DNA of 64,000 bases from a phage. The position numbers were made by a program, and so were the translations under genes. Below the pieces are notes generated by a model. It saw nothing but the letters and a program-made list of their open reading frames with translations, did no database searches and was not told the DNA's origin. This document shows, in pieces, positions 697-42,800 of the stretch (position 1 is the first letter of the stretch; each line of letters opens with the position of its first letter). The stretch is from the sequence record PZ809289.1, one strand, 5' to 3'.

Positions 697-725
697 GTTT
701 ACATCTCCTAGAATTGTGATAGTAT
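697..725 (+). promoter_or_regulatory. Early promoter-like element (GTTTAC -35, 17-bp spacer, TAGTAT -10)
   Basis: GTTTAC 697-702, hexamer 720-725; member of repeated cassette family. Confidence 0.5.
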
Positions 726-778
726 ATCTACAGTTACTTGAACAGACCAATTAAAATATTTTCCTTTAAGGAACCCGT

Positions 779-1375
779 ATGAAAACGTATAAAGAATTTA
801 TCGCCGAAGCTTCTGTAGGAAAGGTCCAAGGCATTAATAAAGATGAGTGGACTTACAAAGGAAACGGCGTTGACAACCCAGGAAACGGTTTTGACGCTAA
901 AACAGCTCCTATTGAACGGTACTTGGCTACAAAAGCTTCCGACTTTAAAGCTTTCGCCTGGGAAGGACTTCGCTGGCGTAACGACCTAAATATTGAAGCT
1001 GATGGACTTAAATTTGCCCATATCCAAGATGTTGTTGCTAGTAACTTGGACGCAGCTTTTGTTAAAGCTGACGGTGACCTTCGTCGCTGGAATTTAAAAC
1101 TGTTCTCTAAACAGAAAGGTCCTGTATTTGTACCTAAAGCAGGTAAATGGACTATTGATAATAAATTGGCTAAAGCAGTTAACTTCGCTGGTCTTGAATT
1201 TGCCAAGCATAAATCCGCATGGAAAGGTCTTGATGCAATGACTTTCCGTAAAGAATTTGCCGATGTTATGGCTAAAGGCGGCTTTAAGGCAGAAATAGAT
1301 ACCTCTAAAGGTACGTTTAAAGACGCTAATATTCAGTACGCTTACGCCGTTGCTAATGCAGCCCGTGGTAATTAA
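779..1375 (+). CDS. Internal head protein-like (198 aa) with capsid-targeting sequence
   Basis: N-terminus MKTYKEFIAEA; RBS AAGGAA upstream. Confidence 0.8.
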   Translation: MKTYKEFIAEASVGKVQGINKDEWTYKGNGVDNPGNGFDAKTAPIERYLATKASDFKAFAWEGLRWRNDLNIEADGLKFAHIQDVVASNLDAAFVKADGDLRRWNLKLFSKQKGPVFVPKAGKWTIDNKLAKAVNFAGLEFAKHKSAWKGLDAMTFRKEFADVMAKGGFKAEIDTSKGTFKDANIQYAYAVANAARGN

Positions 1376-1399
1376 TAAAGCCGATACTTGATAAAAGTT

Positions 1400-1428
1400 G
1401 TTTACATCTCCTGTAGTCATGATACTAT
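1400..1428 (+). promoter_or_regulatory. Early promoter with stem-loop (PeSL-like cassette) upstream of denV
   Basis: GTTTAC 1400-1405, TG-extended -10 TACTAT 1423-1428; 12-bp perfect inverted repeat 1406-1417/1439-1450 pairs the spacer with the SD GGAG of denV. Confidence 0.6.
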
Positions 1429-1455
1429 AGACCTATCAACTACAGGAGATTAAAA

Positions 1456-1863
1456 ATGACTCGTATCAACCTTACCTTAGTATCTGAATTGGCTGACCAA
1501 CACTTAATGGCTGAATATCGTGAATTACCACGTGTTTTCGGTGCAGTTCGTGAACGTATTGCCAAAGGGCAAGGCTTCTCTGATATCCCTAAAGACTTCC
1601 GCCTTGGTTCAGGGCACGTCAAGTTCTTTTATGACAAAATTGGTTTTTTGTTCTTGCGACAAAATGCAATAATTGAGGAACTTCTGAAGCGTGGTTACCA
1701 GATTCAAAATACCCATGTAGACGTAGCGGATATTCCATTACGGCTTATGAACGATTTCACTCCAACCGAAGCTGATATAGCTTTAAGCCAAGCTCGTCTG
1801 GATGAAAAAATTGCACAGCGTCCTACCTGGTACAAACATTATGGCAAGGCTATTTACGCTTAA
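1456..1863 (+). CDS. denV: Endonuclease V, pyrimidine-dimer DNA glycosylase
   Basis: [31 protein letters not shown]...[15 protein letters not shown] is near-identical in ends and length to T4 DenV. Confidence 0.95.
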
Positions 1864-1906
1864 TTAAATCCGTGATAGAATACTTCTATCAACTTAAGGA
1901 ATAACA

Positions 1907-2206
1907 ATGAAAACTTATCAAGAATTTATCACAGAAGCCAAAGCTCCTAAAGCATTTCAAATTGGAGTTCAAGGCAATTTAGACCAAGAATATGTTGATG
2001 CTATTGTAGCAAGCCTCGGTAAACAGGGCGTACAAGTCGATTTTGTTGATTTTACCAAAGGTAATACTTTTAATATTGTTACATCTAAAGGTTCTTTAGC
2101 TAAAGTTAAAAAGGCCTTTGGCGTAGCACAAGCATATGAAATCGACCACTCCGAATTAGAAAATAAAGGTCGCCAGAACACAATTAGAGGTTCTGGTTCT
2201 TTCTAA
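1907..2206 (+). CDS. Internal head protein-like (99 aa) with capsid-targeting sequence
   Basis: N-terminus MKTYQEFITEAK; RBS AAGGAA. Confidence 0.8.
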   Translation: MKTYQEFITEAKAPKAFQIGVQGNLDQEYVDAIVASLGKQGVQVDFVDFTKGNTFNIVTSKGSLAKVKKAFGVAQAYEIDHSELENKGRQNTIRGSGSF

Positions 2207-2310
2207 TAAAGGCAAGCCGGCCCTCTCCTCATGAACGTCTAGTCCTCTGGGTGATGAACCCAAGGATGAATTATGTGCCAAGGATTAGTCCATAACTTAA
2301 AGAGTCAAAA

Positions 2311-2670
2311 ATGAAAACATATCAGCAATTTATTACTGAATCTACCCAACGTATTAACGAAGCTATGTCGCCTGAACAGTTGGCTAAAGCTAAAGAAGGC
2401 CTGAACCCATCTGAAGTTTTTAAAGTTACAGGTAAAGACTTTGCTTCTATGGCCACTAACCAAAGCCTGGCTAAAGAACTTAAATCTAAATCTAACTTCA
2501 TTCATGCTACATGGAATGGTGATTCTCTTACTTCAATAAGTGTGTACAATAAAAAAGGTCTCCTTAAGAGTTCTTATGGCGCGGATGCCATCCGTGTTTC
2601 TAAATCAGATTGGCATAAAAACACTACTAAAGCAGAAAAACCTCATAACCCGGCACTAGACCATCTTTAA
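2311..2670 (+). CDS. Internal head protein-like (119 aa) with capsid-targeting sequence
   Basis: N-terminus MKTYQQFITEST; preceded by 13-codon uORF. Confidence 0.8.
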   Translation: MKTYQQFITESTQRINEAMSPEQLAKAKEGLNPSEVFKVTGKDFASMATNQSLAKELKSKSNFIHATWNGDSLTSISVYNKKGLLKSSYGADAIRVSKSDWHKNTTKAEKPHNPALDHL

Positions 2671-2678
2671 GGCTTAAT

Positions 2679-2936
2679 ATGAAAACTTACCAAGAATTTA
2701 TTACAGAATCCACTTTAGTTTCTAAACGTTGGAATATGATTGTAAACGTTAAACCTTCCGGCACTGAAGTTTCTATGGCCGACCCTAATGATGACGAACT
2801 TGAGCACGCTTTTAGCTCTAAAGAAACTGACGAGAAAGTGGTTAAGCAACTGGTTGCTGATGCAGATCAACTTCGTAAAGTAGCAGATGTTGTTAAGCTG
2901 TTTACTAAGAAAGGTTTTAAACACGAAGAACGTTAA
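2679..2936 (+). CDS. Internal head protein-like (85 aa) with capsid-targeting sequence
   Basis: N-terminus MKTYQEFITEST. Confidence 0.8.
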   Translation: MKTYQEFITESTLVSKRWNMIVNVKPSGTEVSMADPNDDELEHAFSSKETDEKVVKQLVADADQLRKVADVVKLFTKKGFKHEER

Positions 2937-4117: not shown

Positions 4118-4392
4118 TTGAAGATATCAAGGGTTATAAACCGCATACCGACGATAAAATCGGTAAAGTGAATGCTATCAAAGATGCTGAAGTTCGTCTT
4201 GGGTTAATGTTTAAAGCTCTAGAAGAAGAACATGTTACCTATTATATGAACTTAGATACCGAAGAGGTTTCTGAACAAGAACTAGACCAGGCTCATGAAC
4301 GCATTACCCAGATTCGTAATGCAATTGACCGTCTTAAAGAAGCTAGTATGTGGGCTTGTCGCTCTGTGTTCCAACCAGAAGAAAAGTACTAA
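4114..4392 (+). CDS. Hypothetical protein (92 aa)
   Basis: ATGA start/stop coupling with upstream ORF. Confidence 0.5.
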   Translation: MIEDIKGYKPHTDDKIGKVNAIKDAEVRLGLMFKALEEEHVTYYMNLDTEEVSEQELDQAHERITQIRNAIDRLKEASMWACRSVFQPEEKY

Positions 4393-4396
4393 AGCA

Positions 4397-4425
4397 GTTT
4401 ACATCTCCTGTAGGTATGATACTAT
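4397..4425 (+). promoter_or_regulatory. Early promoter with stem-loop (PeSL-like) upstream of regB
   Basis: GTTTAC 4397-4402, TACTAT 4420-4425, CCTATCAAC box, inverted repeat ATCTCCTGTAG/CTACAGGAGAT around the SD. Confidence 0.6.
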
Positions 4426-4453
4426 AAACCTATCAACTACAGGAGATTACAAA

Positions 4454-4912
4454 ATGTCAGAAATTAATTCAGAAGTATTCATCCGCCGCAACAAATTACG
4501 TCGTCAGTTCGAAACCGAATTCCGTGAACTGAATGCGTCCATCAAAAAAGCCGCCATTAAGAGCGGAGTCCCAGCCTTCTTTATTAAGTACTCTAATCAC
4601 TTGTTGGACCGTGCTATCCAACGTGAAATCGACGAAAAATACGTTTTTGCTTTATTCAAGCAACTCCATAACCATGTTAAAGAAATTCATGAATTTTTAA
4701 TCCAGGAACCTCTACCTGATGTAGAATCCGAAATTGTCCCTGGTAAAGTGTATCGTCCATTGCGTCTCGAAATTACCGATAAAACCTTATGGCTAGGTAT
4801 GACAGTAGACCGTAAACATCCTGATAAAGGATACTCATTAAAATGTCGTATGGCATTTGTTAACTCTAAACGTTTAGAAGGTAAAACCAGCACGAAAGTA
4901 ATCTATCTTTAA
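4454..4912 (+). CDS. regB: RegB sequence-specific endoribonuclease
   Basis: MSEINSEVFIRRNKLRRQFETEFRELN...HLLDRAIQREIDEKYVF...LEITDKTLWLG closely matches T4 RegB (about 152 aa). Confidence 0.9.
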   Translation: MSEINSEVFIRRNKLRRQFETEFRELNASIKKAAIKSGVPAFFIKYSNHLLDRAIQREIDEKYVFALFKQLHNHVKEIHEFLIQEPLPDVESEIVPGKVYRPLRLEITDKTLWLGMTVDRKHPDKGYSLKCRMAFVNSKRLEGKTSTKVIYL

Positions 4913-9031: not shown

Positions 9032-9040
9032 CGTTTAGGT

Positions 9041-9069
9041 GTTTACATCCTCTAGGAACATGATACTAT
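9041..9069 (+). promoter_or_regulatory. Early promoter (PeSL-like)
   Basis: GTTTAC 9041-9046, TG-extended TACTAT 9064-9069, CCTATCAAC box. Confidence 0.6.
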
Positions 9070-9097
9070 AGACCTATCAACTAATGAGGAGAACAGT

Positions 9098-11888: not shown

Positions 11889-12077
11889 ATGAAGGTCTTT
11901 TTATCATATGGAAGACCCCATAAAACCCGACGTTGGTATCTTGAAGCTGTCTGTAAAGAAACCGGACGTCGAGTCAATATCAAGTACGTGTGCAAACCTA
12001 CGCCTAAACAGACAAGACAATTTGTTAACTGGGCTATAAATGATATACGCTTCCATAATTTTTGGAGCGCAATTTAG
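11889..12077 (+). CDS. Hypothetical basic protein (62 aa)
   Basis: ORF between NTase gene and terminator; track start 11835 overlaps upstream gene. Confidence 0.4.
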   Translation: MKVFLSYGRPHKTRRWYLEAVCKETGRRVNIKYVCKPTPKQTRQFVNWAINDIRFHNFWSAI

Positions 12078-12098
12078 GAACCTTCGGGTTCCTTTTTT
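12077..12098 (+). terminator. Rho-independent terminator (GGAACC-UUCG-GGUUCC-U6)
   Basis: Perfect 6-bp stem, UUCG loop, T6. Confidence 0.8.
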
Positions 12099-12118
12099 GG
12101 GTTTAGTGCAAAAAAAGA

Positions 12119-12147
12119 GTTTACACCTTCGTAGAGCATGTTATTAT
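12119..12147 (+). promoter_or_regulatory. Early promoter (PeSL-like)
   Basis: GTTTAC 12119-12124, TATTAT 12142-12147, GACCTATCAA box. Confidence 0.55.
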
Positions 12148-12172
12148 GGACCTATCAAATCTACTGAGTGAA

Positions 12173-13165
12173 ATGGAGAATATAATGTTAACTATCAAAA
12201 TCAACAAAGGTATCTATCGCGGTAATGTAATCTCCGGTACGTTCATGAGTTCAGGTAAAACCTGGTTCCCTAATAAAATTCATGAATCCGAAGCTCACCT
12301 CGGTGATGGTAAGGTATTTGTACAGATTGATGGTGTTGAACGTGGTGTATGGGTGTTCAAATGTGACGTTGAAATGGAAGGTGCTGAAGCTCCTGCAGTT
12401 GTTACTGAATCCGCTGAAGAAATGAAACATCGCATTAACAAACGTTTTAAAGTAATGAACATGATGACTAGTGGAATCATCGATGGTAAAATTCGTTCCC
12501 TTATCATCTCTGGTGCCGCAGGTATTGGTAAAACATATTCTTTGGATAAAGCATTACAGAATGCCCACGAAAATGAAACTATCGAATATAAATCAATCAA
12601 CGGAAAGATTAGTGGAATCGGTCTTTACGAGCAGCTTTGGAATAACCGCGGCCCTAATAGTGTTCTTCTTATTGATGATGTTGATGTATTCTCTGATATG
12701 GATATCCTGAACCTGTTAAAAGCAGCATTGGATACTGGTGAAAAACGTAAGGTGTGCTGGAGCACTTCAAGTTCTTATCTTGATGATAAAAATATCGATA
12801 AAGAATTTGAGTATGAAGGCACCATCGTGTTCATCACCAACGTTGATATTGACCGTGAATTAGAGCGTGGAACTAAACTTGCTCCACACCTCCAGGCTTT
12901 AGTATCTCGTTCAGTTTACTTAGACCTCGGAGTTCACTCTAACGAAGAGATTATGGTTCGTGTTGAAGACGTTATCCTGTCCACTGATATGATGCAAAAC
13001 CGTGGTCTGACTGATGCCGAGACTTACCAAGCTTTAGCATGGATGAAGGCTAATGTATCTCGTCTTCGTAACGTATCATTACGTACAGCTCTTTATCTGG
13101 CGGACTTCATTGCCACCGATAAAAATGACTGGAGCGAAATCGCTGAAGTTACACTTCTGAAATAA
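12173..13165 (+). CDS. P-loop NTPase (AAA-like ATPase) of unknown role (330 aa)
   Basis: Walker A SGAAGIGKT and Walker B VLLIDDVD; ATG 12146 of the track ORF lies inside the promoter -10, so start moved to 12173 after ACTGAG RBS. Confidence 0.6.
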   Translation: MENIMLTIKINKGIYRGNVISGTFMSSGKTWFPNKIHESEAHLGDGKVFVQIDGVERGVWVFKCDVEMEGAEAPAVVTESAEEMKHRINKRFKVMNMMTSGIIDGKIRSLIISGAAGIGKTYSLDKALQNAHENETIEYKSINGKISGIGLYEQLWNNRGPNSVLLIDDVDVFSDMDILNLLKAALDTGEKRKVCWSTSSSYLDDKNIDKEFEYEGTIVFITNVDIDRELERGTKLAPHLQALVSRSVYLDLGVHSNEEIMVRVEDVILSTDMMQNRGLTDAETYQALAWMKANVSRLRNVSLRTALYLADFIATDKNDWSEIAEVTLLK

Positions 13166-13174
13166 GGGTGAATT

Positions 13175-13516
13175 ATGTTTGAACAATTTAGTTATGACCT
13201 TATAAAAGCAGAGTTGAAGTACTCTAATGCCGTGAAACAGTCCGTCGAGGACTATGATAAAGAACTTATCGATGGATATACTAATAGAGTTTATAAAACT
13301 GATTGTGAAGAAGGAGACTACAAGAGACTGCTCTTGGCCGCGAAGACCCAGGCCTTAATAAATCTAGACCGCAAGCAGGTAAAGTTGGCAGGCGACTTCC
13401 GAGATGAACTCTGCGCCATCAGGAATGAATATCGCATTCGTATTGAACACCAACGGAAAGAGAACACCCAATCCGCCTGGTTTAGTGGTCAAGCCGGTGA
13501 AAAAAGTTTCTATTAG
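13175..13516 (+). CDS. Hypothetical protein (113 aa)
   Basis: RBS AAGGGTG. Confidence 0.5.
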   Translation: MFEQFSYDLIKAELKYSNAVKQSVEDYDKELIDGYTNRVYKTDCEEGDYKRLLLAAKTQALINLDRKQVKLAGDFRDELCAIRNEYRIRIEHQRKENTQSAWFSGQAGEKSFY

Positions 13517-13518
13517 TT

Positions 13519-13547
13519 GTTTACATCTCCAGTAGAAATGATACTAT
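13519..13547 (+). promoter_or_regulatory. Early promoter with stem-loop (PeSL-like)
   Basis: GTTTAC 13519-13524, TACTAT 13542-13547, CCTATCAAC, inverted repeat TCTCCAGTAG/CTACTGGAG. Confidence 0.6.
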
Positions 13548-13573
13548 AGACCTATCAACTACTGGAGGTTAAC

Positions 13574-14098
13574 ATGAACGCTAAAGATATTTTTTCACTC
13601 ATCAATTATAACAATGGTAATTTCAAATCCGAAAAACAAAGCAAGTTCTTTAACGACGTTGCTTGTGGTAATGAGATTACTGTATCTGGAGGAGAGATTT
13701 ACAAAAGCCGTTGGAACTGGATTGTTGTCATCGATTCAGTTGGTATTGTAGAGCTCTATAAAAACACTAACAAAAAACGTACTCTTCACTGGAGTCGTGA
13801 AACCAATCAAGCTTATCAAGCTGAACGTAACAAACGTTTAATGCCTACCGAATCTGACCTGGCAAACGTTAAATCTGATATCGCTTATTTCGATAATCTG
13901 ATTGCTGAACAACAAGCAGTTATTGATAAGTTTGACGAAATCAAAGCTTGTAAAGAGATTCCTGAATTTATGCGGGAATCAGTAAACGAACAGTACGCCC
14001 TCACTTCAGGTCGTATCGAGCAGTACAAATCACAACGAGCTGAACGCCAAGCTCTGCTTCATAAATTTGAAGAGCGTTTAAAGACGGTTCTCGCATAA
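13574..14098 (+). CDS. Hypothetical protein (174 aa)
   Basis: ORF after promoter; SD inside hairpin 3' arm. Confidence 0.55.
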   Translation: MNAKDIFSLINYNNGNFKSEKQSKFFNDVACGNEITVSGGEIYKSRWNWIVVIDSVGIVELYKNTNKKRTLHWSRETNQAYQAERNKRLMPTESDLANVKSDIAYFDNLIAEQQAVIDKFDEIKACKEIPEFMRESVNEQYALTSGRIEQYKSQRAERQALLHKFEERLKTVLA

Positions 14099-14161
14099 AC
14101 GCTTTATACCAAGGATGGTATAATGGTTCTAGGTTCTTAATTACTTACTGAGGAAATTATT

Positions 14162-15004
14162 ATGTCACAGGCAATTAATCAAATTCGTTCTGAAGTTAAA
14201 AAAGTTATTAAATTTGGTCGTATTCCACTGAATAAAGAAGTGGTTGAAAAGGTTTTGGCCATGATGTGGGAAAAGTTTGAAGTTTGTATTTCTGTAGATG
14301 AATTCACTAAAATATTTGACAAGACTAAAGGTTTGTTTACGTTAGAAGACCGAGTCATGAAATCTCTTCACAGGGCCGGTATGTTGACTCGTGCTAACGC
14401 CAGAATTATTCTTAGAAATTATAACAAAGGCTATGACCTCTATGGTCGTTTAATTCCAGCGATGTCATTTGATGAAGTTGTTAAAGACCTTCGTACTAAC
14501 CAACGTCGTTTACTAGCACTGGGTGCTCGCCTTGCAAAAGGTCAAGATAAGCAAATGCCATTTAAGACTAATGGTTCAGGCGATTGGATTATCTTTAATA
14601 TTGTCAACCAACCAGGTAACGAAAACGAGTATCTTACTTCAACTTTTAGTGGTTGTCAATATGACAACTGGAAATTCCATCTTCGATTGGCTTTGTCCGA
14701 ACTCGAACGTAGTGGTATTCTTACCTTCGATAATGTTAATACCAGTACAGGCTGGCGTATTAAACTTGTTAAGCCAGGTAATGATGTTAAGAGTCATTCA
14801 GAAGCTCCTAAACCGGAACCTGTACCAGTGCGCAGCAATGAGAAGCACCAAGCTCAAATCGAGTATTTTAGCAATTTGCTTACTTGTCTTAATGTTACAA
14901 TTCAACAACAAGATGATGAGATTTTCCGACTCTCTGGTCTGAATGCTAAAGCCAAGGCTGAACGTCAAAAATATATCGATATCCTAAATCTTCTTAAGGA
15001 TTAA
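14162..15004 (+). CDS. Hypothetical protein (280 aa); leader and first codons shared with ORF 21282
   Basis: RBS ACTGAGGA; N-terminus MSQAI. Confidence 0.55.
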   Translation: MSQAINQIRSEVKKVIKFGRIPLNKEVVEKVLAMMWEKFEVCISVDEFTKIFDKTKGLFTLEDRVMKSLHRAGMLTRANARIILRNYNKGYDLYGRLIPAMSFDEVVKDLRTNQRRLLALGARLAKGQDKQMPFKTNGSGDWIIFNIVNQPGNENEYLTSTFSGCQYDNWKFHLRLALSELERSGILTFDNVNTSTGWRIKLVKPGNDVKSHSEAPKPEPVPVRSNEKHQAQIEYFSNLLTCLNVTIQQQDDEIFRLSGLNAKAKAERQKYIDILNLLKD

Positions 15005-15006
15005 TT

Positions 15007-15222
15007 ATGGAAATTATTGGTTTTATTCTTGCTTATCTTGTGATAGGATTTATTACTGCTTTGATTGCGCATAAAACAGGCGCGTGGAACCCGGTTAAAA
15101 TTGAATCAAGCTATGATGCGGTATTCATTACATTTGTATGGCCAGTATTTTGCTTTGCCTGGTTATGTATGCTAATTCTGTGGCCTATCGCTAAACTCTA
15201 TGAAAAATTATTTGGACTCTGA
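15007..15222 (+). CDS. Hypothetical small membrane protein (71 aa)
   Basis: Two hydrophobic helices; RBS AAGGA. Confidence 0.5.
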   Translation: MEIIGFILAYLVIGFITALIAHKTGAWNPVKIESSYDAVFITFVWPVFCFAWLCMLILWPIAKLYEKLFGL

Positions 15223-15223
15223 T

Positions 15224-16093
15224 ATGAACATTAAAACACGTAAAGAATATTCCATCTATGACCATGACACGACTCGTCGTATCGCTATCGATCGGCTGGC
15301 AGACTTTGGCCATATTTGTAATGGTAATTATACTTATGGTGTAGGTCGTAAAGGGACTTATATTAGTTCTTTGAACGATTATTGCCGTTGCCCTGCTCAT
15401 TTATTTGGTGCAACACTGCGAGCTAATATCAAAGACCTCTTGGCTACCGCAGGACGTATTTCTACGGTTCCTGTCAATATCAAGAATATTAATTTTACGG
15501 CTCGTAACCTAGTCATTAATATTCTGCCTGACGGTATTCAAGTTCGTTTCCGTCCTACCTCAAAAGGTAATAAGGCCCTTCGTGAAGCATTCGAAACCTT
15601 ATTCAGAGAGGCAATGACCCGTATTAAGGCAGTAGAATCATATAAAGTTACAACCGATGAATATGCTGATTGTTTTGAGCGGGCTGATGCAGTGTATTTT
15701 AATGTTAAACTAACTCGTGAATATCTTTTGTCTTATGCCCCTTATCAATCCCAACAAAAGGACCCACAAATGGAACGTCGTATCTCTACCGCATCATATG
15801 GGCCCGTAGGCCAGTATGCAGCCTATGACAAATTCAAAACCACTGCTGTACCAAGCCCATTCAATTCCGAACCGTATCATTGGAAAATTAAACCCGAGAA
15901 TTCTTTGGTGGTTACTAACCCTACGATGAAACCTATCGAGAAGTATCATGAGGACCACCTCCAGGAATCAATCCACCGTTTAAACGGTCAGATCGAAGAT
16001 GAGAAAAAGAGTATCCAAGACGTATTGATTCGCATCAAGAACATGGAACTCCAGCGTGACAAGCTCCGCGCGGCAGTATTAGCTCTAAAATAA
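15224..16093 (+). CDS. Hypothetical protein (289 aa)
   Basis: ATG immediately after upstream stop; track start 15200 overlaps upstream gene. Confidence 0.5.
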   Translation: MNIKTRKEYSIYDHDTTRRIAIDRLADFGHICNGNYTYGVGRKGTYISSLNDYCRCPAHLFGATLRANIKDLLATAGRISTVPVNIKNINFTARNLVINILPDGIQVRFRPTSKGNKALREAFETLFREAMTRIKAVESYKVTTDEYADCFERADAVYFNVKLTREYLLSYAPYQSQQKDPQMERRISTASYGPVGQYAAYDKFKTTAVPSPFNSEPYHWKIKPENSLVVTNPTMKPIEKYHEDHLQESIHRLNGQIEDEKKSIQDVLIRIKNMELQRDKLRAAVLALK

Positions 16094-16094
16094 T

Positions 16095-16124
16095 GTTTAC
16101 ATCCAAGGATGGATGGAGTATAAT
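16095..16124 (+). promoter_or_regulatory. Early promoter-like element (GTTTAC, 18 bp, TATAAT)
   Basis: GTTTAC 16095-16100, TATAAT 16119-16124. Confidence 0.55.
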
Positions 16125-16150
16125 CTTTTAAATCTACTGAGGAGAATATC

Positions 16151-17161
16151 ATGACTCGTACTGAATACATCAATGCCTTTACTACGTATATCACTACCAA
16201 CACCCCTCCGTTAACCCCATACGAGGTAATAGTTTCTAATATCAATAAATGGGTCGACCAAATTGATGATGCATTATCGCGCTGTTTCAAAGCTGAAATC
16301 GAAAAGATTGCAGGCCGTTTGTGCATTCATGATATCATTAAAACATTTAAAGGTTCTCGACTGCTTTCGCGCCTGGTCAATAAGGACATCCTTTCTGAGT
16401 TCGGTAAAGAGAAATATCCAGGTTCCAACCGTGTTGTTAACTACAAATGGTTTGGTGATACCATAAAAGGTTATATCAAAATTAAAGGTATGGACCCTAA
16501 TAGTTTATTTCCGCAACGTTGGGTTAGCGAATTCAAGGCTAACTCTGCATTAATTCTCAAAGCGGCCTCTAAAACTATAGTTTCCGGTGATTGTCGTACT
16601 ATTCACCCGATGGCTAATTGCATGATTAAAACAAATAGTTATAAAGGAAAAGCTATTATTTCTGTTATTTGGTCACCTAATAGGAAACCTAAAGATGATG
16701 TGGAAGTTGTAAAGTATCAAGATATTGCTTACGATACCTTGAATACTATCGAACAAGCTTTAGCTCTGATGGATACCGTAGAGAAATATGAGACCCAAGA
16801 AGTTAAACACCACTTAGGCTGGAAAGGATATGAAGTCTTAGTAACAGTCCGTGAAATCAAATGTACCGTTCCAAAAACTGATGCTGAAATTTACAAAGAA
16901 AAATGTGAGGAAATTGTGAACACTGATAAAGAGCCTGCTACATTAGAAGATTTGATTAACGACTTGAACAGCCCTATCATGGCCCCTACACCAATTACTA
17001 AATCCAAGTTACCGGAAGTCGTTGCCTTGGAAAAAGCGTATAAAGACGCCCTTGCTATCAACAAAAAACTGGCCGGGCAATATACTGCTGCCAAGAAACT
17101 TTGGGAAGAGTCTACCAATCGTTTAGACCGTCTTGAACAAGCTCTGGAGCTGTTGAAATGA
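16151..17161 (+). CDS. Hypothetical protein (336 aa)
   Basis: RBS ACTGAGGAG. Confidence 0.55.
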   Translation: MTRTEYINAFTTYITTNTPPLTPYEVIVSNINKWVDQIDDALSRCFKAEIEKIAGRLCIHDIIKTFKGSRLLSRLVNKDILSEFGKEKYPGSNRVVNYKWFGDTIKGYIKIKGMDPNSLFPQRWVSEFKANSALILKAASKTIVSGDCRTIHPMANCMIKTNSYKGKAIISVIWSPNRKPKDDVEVVKYQDIAYDTLNTIEQALALMDTVEKYETQEVKHHLGWKGYEVLVTVREIKCTVPKTDAEIYKEKCEEIVNTDKEPATLEDLINDLNSPIMAPTPITKSKLPEVVALEKAYKDALAINKKLAGQYTAAKKLWEESTNRLDRLEQALELLK

Positions 17162-17379
17162 AATACCAATTAGCTGAAGATATTGACCAAACTATTCCTG
17201 ATTGGAATGCCATTATTAAAATTGTCGAACGTCGTGAAAAAGCTTCTAAGAACGTTCCGAACTGTCCGGAATGTGGAACTGAACAGGTTCAATTGGTCCA
17301 TTGGCAGACTAGTAATCTTCGTTACAAATGCCGCCATTGTAAACATAAATTTGAGCGAGAAGAAAATGGCAAAGCGTAA
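17158..17379 (+). CDS. Small zinc-ribbon protein (73 aa)
   Basis: CPECG...17 residues...CRHC four-Cys arrangement; ATGA coupling. Confidence 0.5.
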
Positions 17380-17602
17380 AGAATATGTAGAGGCTGCCGA
17401 TAAGGCAGTCCGCGAACTTACTCTAGCTTATTATAAAGAGCACGGTAAATTTCCGGACAGTTATTCAGTATTGAAATCTGCTTTAACTCGCTCGTATAAT
17501 AATATACTATCTGATGTGTATAATTTAAAATATGAGCACATGGAAAAATATGGAACAGAACTTGACCGTTCTGAAGCATTCAAACAAATATTAGGAATTT
17601 AA
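17366..17602 (+). CDS. Hypothetical protein (78 aa)
   Basis: [15 protein letters not shown]...; RBS GAGAAGAAA; track ORF 17183 extends upstream in same frame. Confidence 0.45.
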
Positions 17603-17603
17603 A

Positions 17604-17867
17604 ATGTTTAAAGTTTATGGTTATGATTCAAATATTCACCGTTGTGTTTTCTGTGATAATGCCAAACGACTGCTTGATGTTAAGAAACAACCTTACGAAT
17701 TCATTAACGTGATGCCGGAAAAAGGTGTATTTGATGATGAGAAGATTGCTCAACTCCTGGCTGCGCTTGGTCGCGAATCTCAAATCGGTTTGACCATGCC
17801 GCAAGTATTTGCTCCGGACGGAACTTCTATTGGTGGCTTTGACCAACTGCGAGCGTATTTCAAATGA
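17604..17867 (+). CDS. nrdC: Thioredoxin/glutaredoxin NrdC
   Basis: MFKVYGYDSNIHRCVFCDNAKRLLDVKKQPYEFINVMPEKGVFDDEKIAQLL... near-identical to T4 NrdC (87 aa). Confidence 0.9.
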   Translation: MFKVYGYDSNIHRCVFCDNAKRLLDVKKQPYEFINVMPEKGVFDDEKIAQLLAALGRESQIGLTMPQVFAPDGTSIGGFDQLRAYFK

Positions 17868-18034
17868 TTGAATTAATGTTGGTTGTTTTGTATCTTATCA
17901 TCGGTATTGGTTATGCTAAGACCCTAGCTAAATTAGATGATTCAGGTGACTTTTGTTGGTGGTTGACGTCTATGATTTGTTGGCCTTTATTTCTGGTTGG
18001 TGCTTCATTCTGGAACTTCAAATGATTGAATTAA
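17859..18034 (+). repeat. Direct repeat of 18-bp junction TTCAAATGATTGAATTAA flanking a small ORF
   Basis: Copies at 17859-17876 and 18017-18034; each supplies a stop plus overlapping ATG so both downstream ORFs begin MIEL. Confidence 0.7.
17864..18025 (+). CDS. Hypothetical small membrane protein (53 aa)
   Basis: MIELMLVVLYLIIGIGYAKTL...; ATGA coupling with nrdC; not in ORF track (<60 aa). Confidence 0.4.
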   Translation: MIELMLVVLYLIIGIGYAKTLAKLDDSGDFCWWLTSMICWPLFLVGASFWNFK

Positions 18035-18330
18035 ACGAACAAACCATTTTTCTAGGTGATGGTACCGAAGATGACCTGGAATATAAACTATACGAATATA
18101 TGGTTTGGTTGGCTAAAGCAGAAGGTATAGACTTTGCTGTAGCCCATCCATATGGCGAGAACACTGTTGTAATCGGCGGCACCGCTTACGAAGTCCAATG
18201 GCAATACGTTGGCCTTGAATCTGAAGAATTTGAAGAAGATGAACACGGTGATTGGCATCCAGTCGGTCCTTGGTACTGGGAACACGGTGAACCTGATTTT
18301 GAAGTAAGTAGTTGGTGGTGTGACCGTTAA
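18022..18330 (+). CDS. Hypothetical acidic protein (102 aa)
   Basis: MIELNEQTIFLGDG...; ATGA coupling. Confidence 0.5.
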   Translation: MIELNEQTIFLGDGTEDDLEYKLYEYMVWLAKAEGIDFAVAHPYGENTVVIGGTAYEVQWQYVGLESEEFEEDEHGDWHPVGPWYWEHGEPDFEVSSWWCDR

Positions 18331-18385
18331 GCCATGGTATGTCGCTCGGTGGGATACGATAGAACCTACCGAGCCAGAGGAACCC

Positions 18386-18415
18386 GTTTACAACGATTCC
18401 GAAATAGAGTATAAT
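18386..18415 (+). promoter_or_regulatory. Early promoter-like element (GTTTAC, 18 bp, TATAAT)
   Basis: GTTTAC 18386-18391, TATAAT 18410-18415. Confidence 0.5.
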
Positions 18416-18461
18416 GAACCTTCAAACAATGATTTAATTGATATGGAATATGGGTTTTACT

Positions 18462-18647
18462 ATGAAAACTGAACTGATTTATACTGAAAAGTTAAATGGC
18501 GGTAAAGTCTGGAAACTTCTTATTAAAGGAAGTCCTACTGATCAGTTTATGGCCACTTGTGTAGGGTTATACACCCGTCCTACTAAAAAGATGATTCGTC
18601 AATTTAAACGGTTGCATCGCTCGTTTTATAGTACATTTGAAAAATAA
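18462..18647 (+). CDS. Hypothetical protein (61 aa; alternative starts TTG 18438 or ATG 18450)
   Basis: ORF downstream of promoter; start uncertain. Confidence 0.4.
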   Translation: MKTELIYTEKLNGGKVWKLLIKGSPTDQFMATCVGLYTRPTKKMIRQFKRLHRSFYSTFEK

Positions 18648-18682
18648 TAAATACCCTTATCTAATAATGGTAAGGGTTTATT

Positions 18683-19156
18683 ATGTTGTTGACCGGCAAA
18701 TTATACAAAGAAGAAAAACAAAAACTTTATGATGCACAATGTGGTAAGTGTTTGATTTGTAAACGTGAATTAAACCCTGATGTTCAAAGTAACCACCTTG
18801 ACCACGACCATGAATTGAACGGGCCAAAAGCCGGTAAGGTTCGTGGTTTACTATGTAACCTGTGCAATGCTGCAGAAGGACAAATGAAGCATAAGTTCAA
18901 CCGTTCTGGTCTTAAAGGTCAAAACGTTGACTACCTCGAATGGTTAGAGAATTTGCTGGTCTATCTGAAAGCTGATTATACTGAAAACAATATTCATCCT
19001 AATTTCGTTCCTGATAAAACCAAAGAGTTCAGCAGGTTGGGTAAGGAAGAAATGATTGCTGAAATGCTTTCACACGGAATGACTTATAATGAATCTGCCA
19101 CTAAGAAACAAATGGTGGATTCATTCAAAAAACAACTGAGGAAATCGCTTAAATGA
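18683..19156 (+). CDS. 49: Endonuclease VII (Holliday-junction resolvase)
   Basis: MLLTGKLYKEEKQKLYDAQCGKCLICKRELNPDVQSNHLDHDHELNGPKAGKVRGLLCNLCNAAEG... near-identical to T4 gp49 (157 aa). Confidence 0.95.
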   Translation: MLLTGKLYKEEKQKLYDAQCGKCLICKRELNPDVQSNHLDHDHELNGPKAGKVRGLLCNLCNAAEGQMKHKFNRSGLKGQNVDYLEWLENLLVYLKADYTENNIHPNFVPDKTKEFSRLGKEEMIAEMLSHGMTYNESATKKQMVDSFKKQLRKSLK

Positions 19157-19278
19157 TTAATTTTTATGGCTACACATTTTATGCTTTAGCCGAATCTCTG
19201 AATGATGCGGTGCGTATTATGGGTGTTGAGTATCCTGCTCAATGGTTATTTGTTGTAACTAACATGTGGGTTCTTTAA
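19153..19278 (+). CDS. Hypothetical small protein (41 aa)
   Basis: ATGA coupling with gene 49; below track cutoff. Confidence 0.35.
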   Translation: MINFYGYTFYALAESLNDAVRIMGVEYPAQWLFVVTNMWVL

Positions 19279-19493
19279 TGAATAAATTTCGTAATGCTGT
19301 TTCTGATATCCTGGCTAATATAACATTGGTTCTGTTTATCGTATGCCTTTTAATCCTGGCTATTCCGTTTGGATTGCTGTTCATGATTATTGGTGCTCTG
19401 AGTACTGAAAAAGGTCTTGAAGGGTCCGAGTTCGACAAACGAATCCAGGCTGTTCATAGTGTTATTGCAAAAATGATGAAGGTGAAAGAATGA
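19278..19493 (+). CDS. Hypothetical membrane protein (71 aa)
   Basis: MNKFRNAVSDILANITLVLFIVCLLILAIPFGLLFMIIGAL; track start is GTG 19266. Confidence 0.5.
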   Translation: MNKFRNAVSDILANITLVLFIVCLLILAIPFGLLFMIIGALSTEKGLEGSEFDKRIQAVHSVIAKMMKVKE

Positions 19494-19786
19494 AACGTTT
19501 TGAAGAATATGTAGCTTTGAATTGGACCGCTTGGGACAAGTTTGGTGATGATTGGTACTTCCATGACTGTGACCTGAACCCTGAATTCTTTAAAGGTAAG
19601 GAAGACGACCTCAAGGACATCTATGCTCTGTCAGAGATTCATGGTATTAAACCTACTGTCTATTTCTCTTTTGATGATACCGGGTTCCTTATCCAGATTT
19701 ACGTCCCATACGGAACTAATGAAGACGAAGTTCTAAAAACTTGGGACTACCAAGGAGTTATTTCCTGTGGACCAAAAGTTAACTAA
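19490..19786 (+). CDS. Hypothetical protein (98 aa)
   Basis: ATGA coupling. Confidence 0.5.
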   Translation: MKRFEEYVALNWTAWDKFGDDWYFHDCDLNPEFFKGKEDDLKDIYALSEIHGIKPTVYFSFDDTGFLIQIYVPYGTNEDEVLKTWDYQGVISCGPKVN

Positions 19787-20084
19787 AATTGAGATTTACG
19801 GTATCCCTGAGACAGTCATGCGCTGTCCAGGGTGCATTGCTGTTCTATCGCTCCTAAATTCCCTTTCTATCCCACATACTTTCTATCCTGTGATTAATCA
19901 GACGCCGTCAGGCGCAGTATATGACAAGCCTCTTATAGTATCATTGGCCAAACGTGCAGGCTTCAAGAGCTTAGCGATACGCTATCCTGTCATATTTGTC
20001 GATAATAAGAAAATAGAAAATATTCCTGCCTTCAAATCGCTTTTGATTGAACTTGGTTATGACCAAGATTTAATTGAAGATTAG
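19767..20084 (+). CDS. Glutaredoxin/thioredoxin-fold protein with CPGC motif (NrdH-like position)
   Basis: GTG start; KIEIYG beta-strand followed by CPGC redox motif. Confidence 0.5.
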   Translation: MDQKLTKIEIYGIPETVMRCPGCIAVLSLLNSLSIPHTFYPVINQTPSGAVYDKPLIVSLAKRAGFKSLAIRYPVIFVDNKKIENIPAFKSLLIELGYDQDLIED

Positions 20085-20085
20085 T

Positions 20086-20114
20086 ATTTACTTCCTCTCC
20101 TCACGTGTTATAGT
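20086..20114 (+). promoter_or_regulatory. Early promoter variant with stem-loop (PeSL-like)
   Basis: ATTTAC 20086-20091, TATAGT 20109-20114, CCTATCAAC box; 13-bp near-perfect inverted repeat pairing spacer with SD GAGGAG. Confidence 0.5.
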
Positions 20115-20143
20115 CTATCCTATCAACACATGAGGAGAACATT

Positions 20144-20326
20144 ATGACTATCCAAGATAAAGAAATTAAAGCCGACCAGTATTATTCAGTAAATGGCTAC
20201 CCTGTTCAAGTAACAAAGGTAACAAATCTCGATGTATGGTATCAACCTTTGACTCACCCTGATGCTCCATTGATGGTGTGTGACCGTTCTTTATTTTGTT
20301 CAGTAGCTAAGGAAATTAAATCATGA
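20144..20326 (+). CDS. Hypothetical protein (60 aa)
   Basis: RBS GAGGAG. Confidence 0.5.
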   Translation: MTIQDKEIKADQYYSVNGYPVQVTKVTNLDVWYQPLTHPDAPLMVCDRSLFCSVAKEIKS

Positions 20327-20577
20327 GTCTGAAATTACATTCAATGAAAAATATCATTACCCTTAATCTGGATGATGAGCGCCTGATTTTTCTCACCGTC
20401 ACTGATAAGAATATTGAAATTGCAAATGGTCCTAAGACTTATTGTTGCCCGGTGAAGAATTGGAAACATGTAACCTTTTTGACCCTGTGCGACCGTCTGA
20501 AAGATATTAAGTTAGATTTGGATGTCAAAGATGTCCAATACATTAAAAATCTTATTGGATACAAACTGCTGAGGTAA
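20323..20577 (+). CDS. Hypothetical protein (84 aa)
   Basis: ATGA coupling. Confidence 0.5.
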   Translation: MSLKLHSMKNIITLNLDDERLIFLTVTDKNIEIANGPKTYCCPVKNWKHVTFLTLCDRLKDIKLDLDVKDVQYIKNLIGYKLLR

Positions 20578-20579
20578 CT

Positions 20580-20873
20580 ATGGGTAAAACTATTCGTCGT
20601 AAAGAATTGTCTGTAAAAGATTTTTATTATTCCGGACGTCGTAAAGCACCGGACGGCGTAAGTCAGGAACTGGTTGAAGAAAATATCTTCCGTTCCGACA
20701 AGTGGAAACGTATGCGCGGTGTTGATTCTGAAGTTAAGAACGAAATGAACCGCCAGCTTCGTAAAGAAGTGAGAAAGCTGAAAAAAGATGTTTACAATGA
20801 CGATGAACCTGATTACAATACTTCTCATCGAGTTGCAAAACGTAAATCAAACGAATGTTATCGTTATAGCTGA
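20580..20873 (+). CDS. Hypothetical basic protein (97 aa)
   Basis: RBS GAGG; K/R-rich. Confidence 0.5.
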   Translation: MGKTIRRKELSVKDFYYSGRRKAPDGVSQELVEENIFRSDKWKRMRGVDSEVKNEMNRQLRKEVRKLKKDVYNDDEPDYNTSHRVAKRKSNECYRYS

Positions 20874-20880
20874 GGAAAAT

Positions 20881-21012
20881 ATGAATATCAAACGAATGCT
20901 TTTTAAGCAAGGACTATACACTTTAAATGTTAGTCCAAAGGGCGATACAACCACGTGGTCAGTAAATGACTGGATTAAATTCATTGATAAACACGGAAAC
21001 TGGAAAATTTAA
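20881..21012 (+). CDS. Hypothetical small protein (43 aa)
   Basis: RBS GAGGAAAAT; track ORF 20788 extends upstream in frame. Confidence 0.4.
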   Translation: MNIKRMLFKQGLYTLNVSPKGDTTTWSVNDWIKFIDKHGNWKI

Positions 21013-21213
21013 ATGAATCCTGAATCTAAATTATCACAGCGAATTGCTGAAGCTCGTCGTCAGTTCTTTGAAAATATGATAGCCCAAGGTATTGATGACG
21101 AAGTTTTTCTGAACTGGTTTTGGAACCACAAATATTCAAGTTGTTCAGGCGCTTTATTAATTTCAGCTGCATCTATGTACGAAGGCTGGAAAGGTGCAAT
21201 GAGTCAAAAATAG
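21013..21213 (+). CDS. Hypothetical protein (66 aa)
   Basis: TAAATG coupling. Confidence 0.45.
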   Translation: MNPESKLSQRIAEARRQFFENMIAQGIDDEVFLNWFWNHKYSSCSGALLISAASMYEGWKGAMSQK

Positions 21214-21242
21214 TTTACAAACTCTTGGGACCAGAGTATAAT
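21213..21242 (+). promoter_or_regulatory. Early promoter-like element (GTTTAC, 18 bp, TATAAT)
   Basis: GTTTAC 21213-21218, TATAAT 21237-21242; GGACC/GGTCC hairpin across -10. Confidence 0.55.
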
Positions 21243-21281
21243 GGTCCTACGGATTATAACTTTAAAACTGAGGAAATTATT

Positions 21282-21611
21282 ATGTCACAAGCTATTAAAA
21301 ACGTACTGAACTCTTTCGCTTTCGATAAAGTAAACGAACTGATGAAAACAGGTTTTGTAACTCCTCAGGTTCTTGACCAATGGGTTGCTGAACTGTTACC
21401 TATCATGCACTCTAAAGACCAGAAAATTGGTAAGAACGGTATTCGTGAAATCCTGGTTCAATATATCCTCGATGAATTCGATGTCGCTGCCTTTGGTGTA
21501 GAATCTAAAGCTTGGTGCCCTGGTGAAATCACGGATAAAACTATCCGTCGTATGAAAAACCAACGTAAGAAAAAATTCGTCGACCTGAAAATTGTTAAGG
21601 CAGCTAAATGA
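21282..21611 (+). CDS. Hypothetical protein (109 aa); leader and first codons shared with ORF 14162
   Basis: RBS ACTGAGGA; N-terminus MSQAI. Confidence 0.55.
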   Translation: MSQAIKNVLNSFAFDKVNELMKTGFVTPQVLDQWVAELLPIMHSKDQKIGKNGIREILVQYILDEFDVAAFGVESKAWCPGEITDKTIRRMKNQRKKKFVDLKIVKAAK

Positions 21612-21856
21612 ATAATTTGCCTGAGGGTGTATCGGTTATAATAGTCCTTAAAGCTTTAGCCGGGTTCCAACGTACACCCATGATGAATAATATTGAAACT
21701 ATTATAAAAGCGGCTAAGATGCTAAGTGGAAGTCATCGTGATTTCAGGATATTTCCTATAAGCTCTAAAACCACTTATATGAAAATGCCTGACCCAAAAA
21801 TAGCTTGGGATGAAGGCATGACATTAAATGAATTTGAGGATTATTTGAATGATTAA
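21608..21856 (+). CDS. Hypothetical protein (82 aa)
   Basis: ATGA coupling. Confidence 0.5.
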   Translation: MNNLPEGVSVIIVLKALAGFQRTPMMNNIETIIKAAKMLSGSHRDFRIFPISSKTTYMKMPDPKIAWDEGMTLNEFEDYLND

Positions 21857-22115
21857 AATAAAACTCTCTAATTACGATAAAAACTTGGAAATGATTGCTA
21901 TGAAAGAAGAACTCTTGAATGATGTCCGCTTTACCGGTTATGCAGTTCAATTTAATGGTGATGGGACTCTCCAGATTGAGGGTGACCACTTTATCATCGA
22001 ATACGAATTTAAACAGTACTGGCTTTATGCGAAGGATGAAGTTGGCGGTGTTGATTACGTCGACGAGTTCGATAACCTAGATGACGCATTGGAAGGAGCT
22101 CGATTCCTACAATGA
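21849..22115 (+). CDS. Hypothetical acidic protein (88 aa)
   Basis: Overlapping start. Confidence 0.5.
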   Translation: MIKIKLSNYDKNLEMIAMKEELLNDVRFTGYAVQFNGDGTLQIEGDHFIIEYEFKQYWLYAKDEVGGVDYVDEFDNLDDALEGARFLQ

Positions 22116-22375
22116 AACCCATATCCACCACCCTCGCCTACGAAGGTCTCGGATTTTTCTTAATAGATAACTGTATGGATGTTGAGTTTGTTTGTGGTGA
22201 GACTTCTTTAGTATGGAAGTCTCATATTTCCAAATACAACCATCGCGAATATCCAGGTCTTTTTAAAGAATTTTGTGGATATATGTCTGAACATGGATGT
22301 ACTGATACAATTTCTTATTCCGAGTTCACACAAATCCTTGAAACCGTATTTCAGGCTTATTGCTTACTCCGTTGA
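22112..22375 (+). CDS. Hypothetical protein (87 aa)
   Basis: ATGA coupling. Confidence 0.5.
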   Translation: MKPISTTLAYEGLGFFLIDNCMDVEFVCGETSLVWKSHISKYNHREYPGLFKEFCGYMSEHGCTDTISYSEFTQILETVFQAYCLLR

Positions 22376-22441
22376 TGCTTTAAAAGGGTCTTCAAATACT
22401 ATGATATAATAGACCTATGATTTGAGTTATCTGAGGTAACA

Positions 22442-22999
22442 ATGACCGAAATTAAACTGACTAAAAATAACTATGTAAATAATAAGGAGCTTCTGAAAGC
22501 TATCACCCAATGGAAAACAGAACTCAGAGAAAATACCGATCCTAATAAAATAGTTCGCCAGAACGACGTTATCGGCTTGGCTATTATGCTCATTGCTGAA
22601 GGACTAAGTAAACGTTTCAACTTCTCAGGATATACCCAATCTTGGAAGCAAGAAATGATTGCTGATGGAATCGAAGCTTCGATTAAAGGTCTTCACAACT
22701 TCGACGAAACAAAATACGACAACCCACATGCATATATCACTATGGCTTGTTTTAATGCCTTCGTTCAGCGTATCAAAAAAGAACGTAAAGAAATGGCAAA
22801 GAAATATAGCTACTTCGTCCATAATGTCTATGACAGTAATGATGACGACATGGTAGGTATTGCAGATGAAACCTTTATCCAAGATATCTACGACAAAATG
22901 ACTCAGTATGAAACCTCTTTAACTAAAGCACCAGGGTCTGATAAGAGTGCCGAACCTAAAGTTGGTGAACTGGATTTTTTATATGGAACATCAGATTAA
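22442..22999 (+). CDS. 55: Late-transcription sigma factor gp55
   Basis: ...[91 protein letters not shown]... essentially T4 gp55 (185 aa). Confidence 0.95.
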
Positions 23000-23213
23000 T
23001 ATCACTCCACTTTTAGATGGAATGGAAGACTTCGAAGCACTCCCTTATTTTATTAAATTGATATTACGGGATGTTAAAGGTCTTCCTATTGATATTGACC
23101 CACTTAACGTCAGGAATATTGAATTCACTTCTCCTGACAATAACGTAGATTACCGTTATCATGTTGAGAACGCTAATTTCTACTTCACTATTGAATTGAC
23201 TCCAAAGGATTAA
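22983..23213 (+). CDS. Hypothetical protein (76 aa)
   Basis: ATG overlapping end of gene 55; track start 22947 further upstream. Confidence 0.45.
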
Positions 23214-42790: not shown

Positions 42791-42800
42791 GTTTTTAAGG

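Follow-up and report, generated by a model that had tools for sequence, protein, structure and literature searches.

The starts of two unrelated genes in a T4-like phage share a region of roughly 32 nt that was most likely copied long ago, without a swap of gene bodies between the two loci. The genes are homologues of nrdC.6 and 55.2, and they lie about 7.1 kb apart in a stretch of 64,000 nucleotides from the phage sequence record PZ809289.1, which was analysed as a whole and is called the window below. The reading that we favour, with a probability of about 0.6, is that the start region of 55.2 was copied ectopically onto nrdC.6 at an early time, through recombination between two cassettes of the PeSL/PmSL type.

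The window comes from a Dhakavirus (JS98/IME08/WG01 group; Straboviridae, T4-like). Its positions 13000-23000 are 97.5% identical to Escherichia phage WG01, and also match QL01, IME08 and other Dhakavirus genomes. Prereplicative transcription runs along the + strand. Both genes sit in the nrdC-49-55 stretch, which is rich in small variable ORFs. T4 gp55.2 inhibits E. coli topoisomerase I (PMC4396842). No mention of nrdC.6 was found in the literature searched. The coordinates of the features are collected in Table 1.

The 32-mer ACTGAGGAAATTATTATGTCACARGCWATTAA was found on the + strand at both genes, exactly where the preliminary description had placed it, with 30/32 positions identical. The same SD, spacer and first five codons had been claimed for the two genes, and this was confirmed: both proteins begin MSQAI, and the two mismatches between the copies are synonymous third-codon positions (CAG/CAA and GCA/GCT). 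At 55.2, the GAGG is located at 21270-21273 and the ATG at 21282. The number of chance matches expected for the block from shuffled sequence (n=100) was 0. All start regions of the window were then compared over positions -15 to +17 (32 nt). Each ATG with an upstream SD-like motif and an ORF of at least 40 codons was taken as a start site, which gave 156 sites and 12,090 pairs. The runner-up to the nrdC.6/55.2 pair reached 23/32. An upstream half of 15/15 was seen for this pair alone, identity of at least 12/14 on the 3' side of the ATG was seen for 8 pairs, and the joint match of 15/15 upstream and 15/17 downstream had no equal among the 12,090. Unrelated proteins of the window do share chance N-terminal prefixes of 4-5 residues (MSKLT, MKKL, MDIF), and the start-region identity of such pairs was always 22/32 or lower. 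The similarity also reaches upstream of the block, where GTATAATGGTyCTA is 13/14 identical and matches exactly at these two sites only. A search for the motif had been suggested; in the scanned Dhakavirus genomes its exact core was confined to these two places, and most of these genomes had it twice. These results indicate that the block similarity is real and far from chance.

The similarity does not extend to the proteins. BLASTP of NrdC.6 against gp55.2 found nothing beyond the shared start (E = 8.6). When a 32-sequence alignment of 55.2 was compared with a 15-sequence alignment of nrdC.6 by hhalign, only columns 1-8 were aligned, with 2% probability. The two proteins were also assigned to different PHROG and Pfam groupings. 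Full-length homology, which the preliminary description had named as the finding that would speak against it, is ruled out by these three comparisons, as is domain homology, and its statement that the proteins diverge completely was right. NrdC.6 and gp55.2 are thus unrelated past residue 8.

Each start codon lies 38-40 nt 3' of a TATAAT (14119-14124 for nrdC.6, 21237-21242 for 55.2), and both TATAATs are within hairpins. A TATAAT promoter with a hairpin over the -10 had been reported for each gene, and it is present in both, although the geometry differs: the -10 is in the loop at 55.2 and in the 3' arm at nrdC.6. The 55.2 hairpin has a 7-bp stem (arms 21226-21232/21243-21249), and relatives carry stem variants in which the pairing is kept (GGGACC/GGTCC, GAGC/GCTC, GAGGAC/GTCCTC and GGGTCA/TGACCC). 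In a ten-sequence alignment of the TATAAT promoter class alone, with the second class left out since its gaps shift the arms, 95% of cells were paired and double changes were found in 4/7 pairs. Slid registers gave 39-57% paired, and 0/500 shuffles reached the observed score. This second class (TTTGCTATAG...) precedes 55.2 in more distant genera and has an analogous longer hairpin. For the full set of 26 promoter regions of 55.2, no structure was obtained with RNAalifold, because MAFFT had aligned the two promoter classes out of register. Upstream of the 55.2 -35, where PeSL elements are expected to have an AT-rich tract, there is only a short caaaaatag tract that overlaps the end of gene 55.3. 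In T4, the 55.2 promoter was lost and the terminator hairpin was kept.

The nrdC.6 promoter has no -35. Its aaaCGCTTTA fits the Mot box at 9/10 positions with the CTT core intact; the MotA-box consensus is (a/t)(a/t)(a/t)TGCTTtA, placed 12 +/- 1 bp from the -10 and often accompanied by TGn (PMC2988021). CGCTTTATACCAAGGATGGTATAATGGTTCTA of this promoter recurs essentially unchanged at the mapped T4 middle promoter PnrdC.7. The nrdC.6 promoter would be MotA-dependent in this phage, as judged from these matches. Its hairpin consists of an 8-bp stem, TTATACCA/TGGTATAA, and a 4-nt loop, and the lineages are too few for covariation.

Transcription would start at about 14131 for nrdC.6 and about 21249 for 55.2, with leaders of about 30 nt. 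The leaders are less folded than 186-190/200 shuffles (z = +1.3 and +1.5), which leaves an open, A/U-rich ribosome-binding site whose GAGG stands 8 nt ahead of the AUG. Because the hairpins lie upstream of or across these putative start sites, they would form only in read-through transcripts. PeSL stem-loops have been shown to attenuate transcription (PMC2839356), and the hairpins here may by analogy attenuate read-through transcripts.

Table 1. Positions of the genes, promoters, hairpins and start blocks in the window
Feature	Position	Strand	Description
Internal-protein cluster	296-2707		five genes with a common leader
nrdC.6 promoter	14097..14124	+	middle-type; Mot-box-like aaaCGCTTTA (14097-14106), 12-bp spacer, TGg extended -10, TATAAT (14119-14124)
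nrdC.6 hairpin	14104..14123	+	TTATACCA-AGGA-TGGTATAA, -10 in 3' arm
Copy A of the block	14147..14178	+	GAGG Shine-Dalgarno, 8-nt A/U spacer, ATG and codons 2-6 of nrdC.6
nrdC.6 homologue	14162..15004	+	280 aa, phrog_2257, without Pfam family (IME08, VR20 annotations)
55.2 promoter	21214..21242	+	early-type; (G)TTTACA, 17-nt spacer, TATAAT; 11/12 to consensus
55.2 PeSL hairpin	21226..21249	+	TGGGACC / GGTCCTA, -10 in loop; compensatory changes across genera
Copy B of the block	21267..21298	+	same elements at 55.2; apparent ancestral 55.2 start region
55.2 homologue	21282..21611	+	109 aa, Pfam DUF7570 / phrog_1475 (IME08, VR20 annotations)
regA	31250-31612		1REG, E = 4e-58

Composite elements of this kind are known. 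PeSL is made of an early promoter, a stem-loop and SD-ATG, and PmSL is its Mot-box version (Arbiol et al. 2010, PMC2839356; Comeau et al. 2014, PMC4122927). Recombination between regulatory cassettes has already been described in T4-like phages, and the published PeSL crossovers were located between the -10 and the ATG (PMC2839356; PMC4122927). The two units here have the same parts in the same order, namely an early or Mot-box middle promoter, a stem-loop, an SD and a start codon. The stem-loop likewise lies between the boxes or overlaps the -10, and the units are situated in a hyperplastic region, beside ORF indels. The 55.2 unit has the sigma-70-like/T4 early promoter, the stem-loop, the 3' SD with start codon and the hyperplastic surroundings of a PeSL: Mosigvirus has an extra ORF directly upstream, and an 82-aa ORF directly downstream is present or absent among Dhakaviruses. 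The nrdC.6 unit has the Mot box, the -10 with TGn and the associated stem-loop of a PmSL. There are also differences. The block has two copies only, its identity is highest from the SD to codon 6 and not in the promoter or stem, the nrdC.6 and 55.2 promoters are of separate classes, and the cassettes precede conserved genes instead of ORFans. A further relative is T4 PnrdC.7. Its CCGCTTTATACCAAGGATGGTATAATGGTTCTA is essentially identical to the nrdC.6 promoter here and stands at the same place after nrdC.8 (PMC2988021 Table 1). In T4 this promoter drives nrdC.7, whereas here nrdC.7 is absent at this position and the cassette directly heads nrdC.6.

The block appears to be the ancestral 55.2 start (MSQAIKN) across many T4-like genera. 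Seen from four genera, MSQAIN is on nrdC.6 in Dhakavirus and Gaprivervirus, and 55.2 starts with MTIQIKN in T4, MSTKIKN in Mosigvirus and MTASITN in Gaprivervirus. A recent transfer from nrdC.6 to 55.2, as read from four genomes, was overturned by a set of 40 55.2 loci, which showed MSQAIKN to be ancestral in this gene. MSQAIKNVLNSF, encoded as ATGTCNCARGCNATYAAAAAC, starts 55.2 in 29/40 IMG/VR loci, and 23 of those 29 are distant, non-Dhakavirus loci (56-65% identity). The synonymous positions of the MSQAIKNVLNSFA(F/Y) 55.2 starts vary freely, and ACTGAGGAAA often precedes them. By tblastn, counterparts of the distant loci in the annotated collection were found in Klebsiella, Enterobacter, Citrobacter and Serratia phages; the same search gave no nrdC.6 match in these phages with 55.2.

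A position weight matrix was built from 17 distinct non-Dhakavirus 55.2 starts only. It gave 43.6 bits for the 55.2 start of the window, 41.6 bits for its nrdC.6 start and 39.2 bits for the nrdC.6 start of VR20 (Gaprivervirus). The remaining 154 sites of the window reached 13.9 bits at most (mean -22, sd 12.6). The T4-group nrdC.6 starts scored -10.2 and -4.5 bits, and the Mosigvirus nrdC.6 start -3.0 bits. The 55.2 family has an invariant I5 and N7 and an almost invariant K6; the N-terminus of nrdC.6 is invariant at M1 and S2 only. This is the pattern expected if the sequence has a function in 55.2 and is carried along as a passenger in nrdC.6. Taken together, the 55.2-type scores and the residue conservation argue that the block is native to 55.2 and was copied onto nrdC.6.

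The nrdC.6 copy would be older than the Dhakavirus-Gaprivervirus split. Both copies were present in 8/8 Dhakavirus genomes examined (30-31/32), and the nrdC.6 copy was present in 3/3 Gaprivervirus genomes examined. It is probably older than the split from T4 too, with later decay in T4 and Mosigvirus. The SD/spacer half of Mosigvirus nrdC.6 is 12/15 identical, and T4-group nrdC.6 begins ATG TCA GTA G(T/C)A ATT AA, which encodes MSV(V/A)IN. For each of these two remnants, only about 0.2% of background pairs match as well. NrdC.6 residues 5-16 can be aligned between T4 and Dhakavirus. The promoter cassette of T4 extends to ...TTGAGATTATT-ATG (...ATTATT-ATG) and is followed by nrdC.7, which encodes a 133-aa membrane protein; after nrdC.7, a second start region, GAGTGAGGAAAAT-ATG-TCA-GTA..., starts nrdC.6. 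In this layout, therefore, an ORF-sized indel of about 405 nt stands between the two halves of the 55.2-like block. In Mosigvirus, nrdC.7 is located elsewhere, between nrdC.2 and nrdC. The simplest reading of the two partial remnants is that the block would be ancestral to all nrdC.6. A conversion limited to Dhakavirus and Gaprivervirus is weakened by the Mosigvirus and T4 remnants and by the T4 nrdC.7 split.

In Dhakavirus, Gaprivervirus, Mosigvirus and T4 alike, the two genes occupy the same map positions and are syntenic orthologues. Their promoters differ in class, and each gene has a lineage-conserved one of its own. Around the nrdC.6 start, the Dhakavirus genomes do not differ between about -92 and +44. 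Further on, over the stretch between +45/+65 and about +700, the QL01-, JS98- and IME281-like genomes show an allele switch, with a divergence of about 20%. Reciprocal chimeras of the two loci were searched in 50,697 phage records and none was found; the best matches were the native sites (80% coverage, 89-90% identity). Every exact block match in IMG/VR has native flanks, with no chimera. Among metagenome contigs there were two block matches, both with native flanks, and no chimera or third gene. A degenerate 55.2-type pattern, GAGGAAA-N5-ATGTCNCARGCNATYAA, was searched over 2.9 million viral contigs. It gave 38 matches, 29 at 55.2 and 9 at nrdC.6, and none at a third gene. Mini-circles were not seen either, and assemblies of this kind cannot reveal them at about 1e-5 per virion. 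Deletion between the copies would probably be inviable, because the segment between them includes nrdC and gene 49 (endonuclease VII).

The block was also compared with operators of RegA. The T4 RegA operator (PMC3014915) is similarly A/U-rich and unstructured, spans the AUG and has a 5' A tract, and the block resembles the gene 44 operator AAAUUAUGAUU. With the T4 RegA SELEX consensus aaAAUUGUUAUGUAA (PMC3014915), the block was the best match of the window, scoring 12/15 at the top of the 156 sites. The rIIB orthologue scored 10/15 and genes 45, 44, 62 and regA 5-9/15, so that with classical-target orthologues at 5-10/15 the score separates known targets weakly. The window encodes regA (Table 1). 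A canonical RegB site was rejected: the SD is GAGGAAA, not GGAG/U (RegB consensus from PMC3014915).

Other explanations of the shared block were weighed against the old copy. The preliminary description had suggested cassette exchange with the break point inside the first codons. One part of this suggestion stood, in that start regions at the nrdC.6/55.2 locus do act as exchange or indel junctions: nrdC.7 follows the same cassette in T4, and nrdC.6 alleles switch at +45 to +65. The other part, a recent swap in which one of these two gene bodies was brought in, did not. PeSL-type cassettes are known to mediate swaps, and T4 has a different ORF right after the same promoter and start region, but the orthologues are syntenic in four genera behind their own conserved promoters, nrdC.6 residues 5-16 align with the T4 orthologue, and the searches yielded no chimera. 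Gene content at both loci was also compared in relatives, as had been proposed, and no other gene stood downstream of the block in any of them. We regard a recent swap as highly improbable. The 30-31/32 identity in all the Dhakavirus genomes examined could instead reflect concerted evolution, in which recurrent short-patch gene conversion across 7.1 kb keeps the copies alike. Minority variants always match the other copy (CAA of nrdC.6 in L018; GCA of 55.2 in IME08 and L019), and this toggling is weak evidence because the variable positions have two to four synonymous options only. Full identity of the copies was, however, never seen, and they differ at the same synonymous positions from genome to genome. 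Each copy is already near the ancestral state of its own gene family, and Gaprivervirus retains the nrdC.6 copy though its own 55.2 start has diverged (MTASITN). Concerted evolution therefore seems improbable to us.

The main rival of the old copy is convergence, which we consider unlikely. Here the two genes would have evolved independently to the same optimal, unstructured and possibly RegA-regulated site, and the shared Q3 and A4 would be coincidental. The block tops the 156 sites for the RegA consensus, regA is present in the window, GAGGAAA with an A/U spacer is a common T4-type layout near the generic T4 optimum, and chance prefixes of 4-5 residues do occur in the window. Against this, the joint match of 15/15 and 15/17 is unique among the 12,090 pairs, the 2.9 million viral contigs hold no third gene with the pattern, and the RegA score discriminates weakly among classical targets. 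From genus to genus, 55.2 codons 2-5 vary freely at their synonymous sites, and the coding half thus shows no RNA-level constraint that could push it towards convergence. It is very improbable that MSQAI is instead a functional N-terminal tag common to both proteins, like the leader of the internal proteins. The 55.2 peptide is conserved at the protein level while its codons vary, and there is a precedent within the window, where five internal-protein genes have the leader MKTY(N/K/Q)EFI(A/T)E. The known role of the internal-protein leader is capsid targeting. In T-even phages, unrelated internal proteins likewise share promoter, SD and first codons (Repoila et al. 1994, discussed in PMC2839356). 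Their leader has about 10 residues and their genes are clustered and shuffled, whereas here 5 residues are shared by two dispersed, stable genes; start-region identity is 30/32 here versus 18-23/32 between internal-protein gene starts. Moreover, nrdC.6 orthologues accept MSVVIN, MSVAIN and MSITSD. A capsid-targeting leader was rejected, as MSQAI(N/K) is unlike the internal-protein leaders of the window, has no terminal Glu and belongs to genes of the nrdC-55 region.

In the old-copy reading, two composite cassettes of promoter, stem-loop, SD and ATG would each have the block at their 3' end, as translation-initiation region. 55.2 would be its native owner, and copying would have run from 55.2 to nrdC.6, by short-patch conversion or by a crossover between start regions. 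The event would have happened before the Dhakavirus-Gaprivervirus split and probably before the split from T4, and both genes would since have been inherited vertically, in place. The phage, viral-contig and metagenome collections contained no intermediate or chimera recording it. The limits of the copied patch are no finer than roughly -20 to +17. The whole cassette was not duplicated, because the two promoters belong to different classes. Each copy would provide its gene with a strong, unstructured ribosome-binding site, carried on the leader of about 30 nt that the gene's own promoter yields, and the upstream hairpin would serve as an attenuator in read-through transcripts only.

The block adds a new case to a known kind of element. 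It reveals no new type of system, and its interest is modest. It is a clean natural case in which a short regulatory/initiation patch, not a gene, was the copied unit between unrelated phage genes, with an identifiable donor (55.2) and an age that can be roughly estimated. It extends the PeSL/PmSL picture to JS98-like coliphages, and it shows that one start region can be common to early-type and middle-type cassettes. RegA may co-repress nrdC.6 and 55.2, a hypothesis drawn from the operator-like sequence, and the pair is a simple system in which to examine whether RegA co-regulates a known inhibitor of a host topoisomerase. A more specific proposal, which we think rather doubtful, is that the block is a portable module of RegA-type operator and first codons, moved from 55.2 to nrdC.6 and kept, from before the Dhakavirus-Gaprivervirus split and probably from before that of T4, for the shared translational shut-off of both proteins. 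If this were true, start regions, besides promoters, would be units of regulatory exchange in T4-like phages.

The gene nrdC.6 is mosaic inside the genus Dhakavirus (14206-14860). Against three Dhakavirus genomes (L015, L018 and L020) it showed about 20% nucleotide divergence from +45/+65 to about +700, and this divergent stretch was bordered on both sides by near-identical sequence. The neighboring nrdC.8 of another Dhakavirus genome (L016) has a 99-nt in-frame deletion in its C-terminal part (window 13973-14071), which ends about 90 nt 5' of the nrdC.6 start. nrdC.7 is a displaced ORF, as judged from its positions in T4 versus the Mosigvirus JS09 (see the table). The T4 copy has AATTGAG repeats on both sides, and these lie inside two start regions.

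Variation was also found around 55.2. The 82-aa ORF immediately 3' of this gene is not found in every Dhakavirus: IME08, L017 and L020 have it, L015, L016 and L018 lack it, and L019 carries divergent sequence in this region. The T4-group phages (L024-L030) lack a promoter ahead of 55.2. About 40-60 nt 5' of the gene, at the intergenic position where the 55.2 promoter sits in other phages, they have a hairpin, GGGCTTCGGCCC, that resembles a terminator and leads into a T run.

The annotated starts of both genes in the IME08 RefSeq record look wrong (3154 for nrdC.6 and 10710 for 55.2). The nrdC.6 annotation begins at an ATT 6 nt 5' of the ATG, and that of 55.2 begins 72 nt too far upstream, which places the gene's own promoter inside the CDS. 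The window also encodes the translational repressor RegA, and the start block shared by nrdC.6 and 55.2 is the best match in the window to the T4 RegA SELEX consensus.

Several other repeats were observed in the window. The early-promoter cassettes (GTTTACATCTCCTGTAG..TGATACTATAGACCTATCAACTACAGGAGAT) form a nine-member family of 63 nt each, in which the promoter spacer and the GGAG SD can pair as the two arms of a roughly 11-nt inverted repeat; one copy heads nrdC.8, shortly upstream of the nrdC.6 locus. Folding was very strong in two of the three cassettes tested (z = -5.9 and -5.5), and SD sequestration would be confined to read-through transcripts. The hairpin AGGAACCTTCGGGTTCC, which resembles a terminator and precedes a T run, occurs at 12076-12105 and 47082-47111; these two copies are 35 kb apart and share 97% identity over 30 nt. 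An imperfect tandem duplication at 55951-56175 has a 68-nt unit (93% identity, 93-nt spacing) and a second pair of 43 nt.

Coordinates of genes and cassettes (window positions unless another genome is named)
Feature	Position	Remark
MKTY(N/K/Q)EFI(A/T)E-leader gene starts	298, 779, 1907, ~2311, 2679	
63-nt early-promoter cassettes 1-5	691-753, 1394-1456, 4391-4453, 9035-9097, 12113-12175	
63-nt early-promoter cassettes 6-9	13513-13575, 42795-42857, 50314-50376, 53684-53746	
82-aa ORF	21608-21856	immediately 3' of 55.2
regA	31250-31612	1REG, E = 4e-58
nrdC.7, T4	13825-14226	predicted membrane protein; between nrdC.8 and nrdC.6
nrdC.7, JS09	4291-4704	between nrdC.2 and nrdC

Five small clustered genes at 296-2707 have a common leader, MKTY(N/K/Q)EFI(A/T)E, and are unrelated beyond it. 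This cluster looks like an internal-protein locus; it resembles the loci of this kind that are the classical example of first codons common to unrelated proteins.
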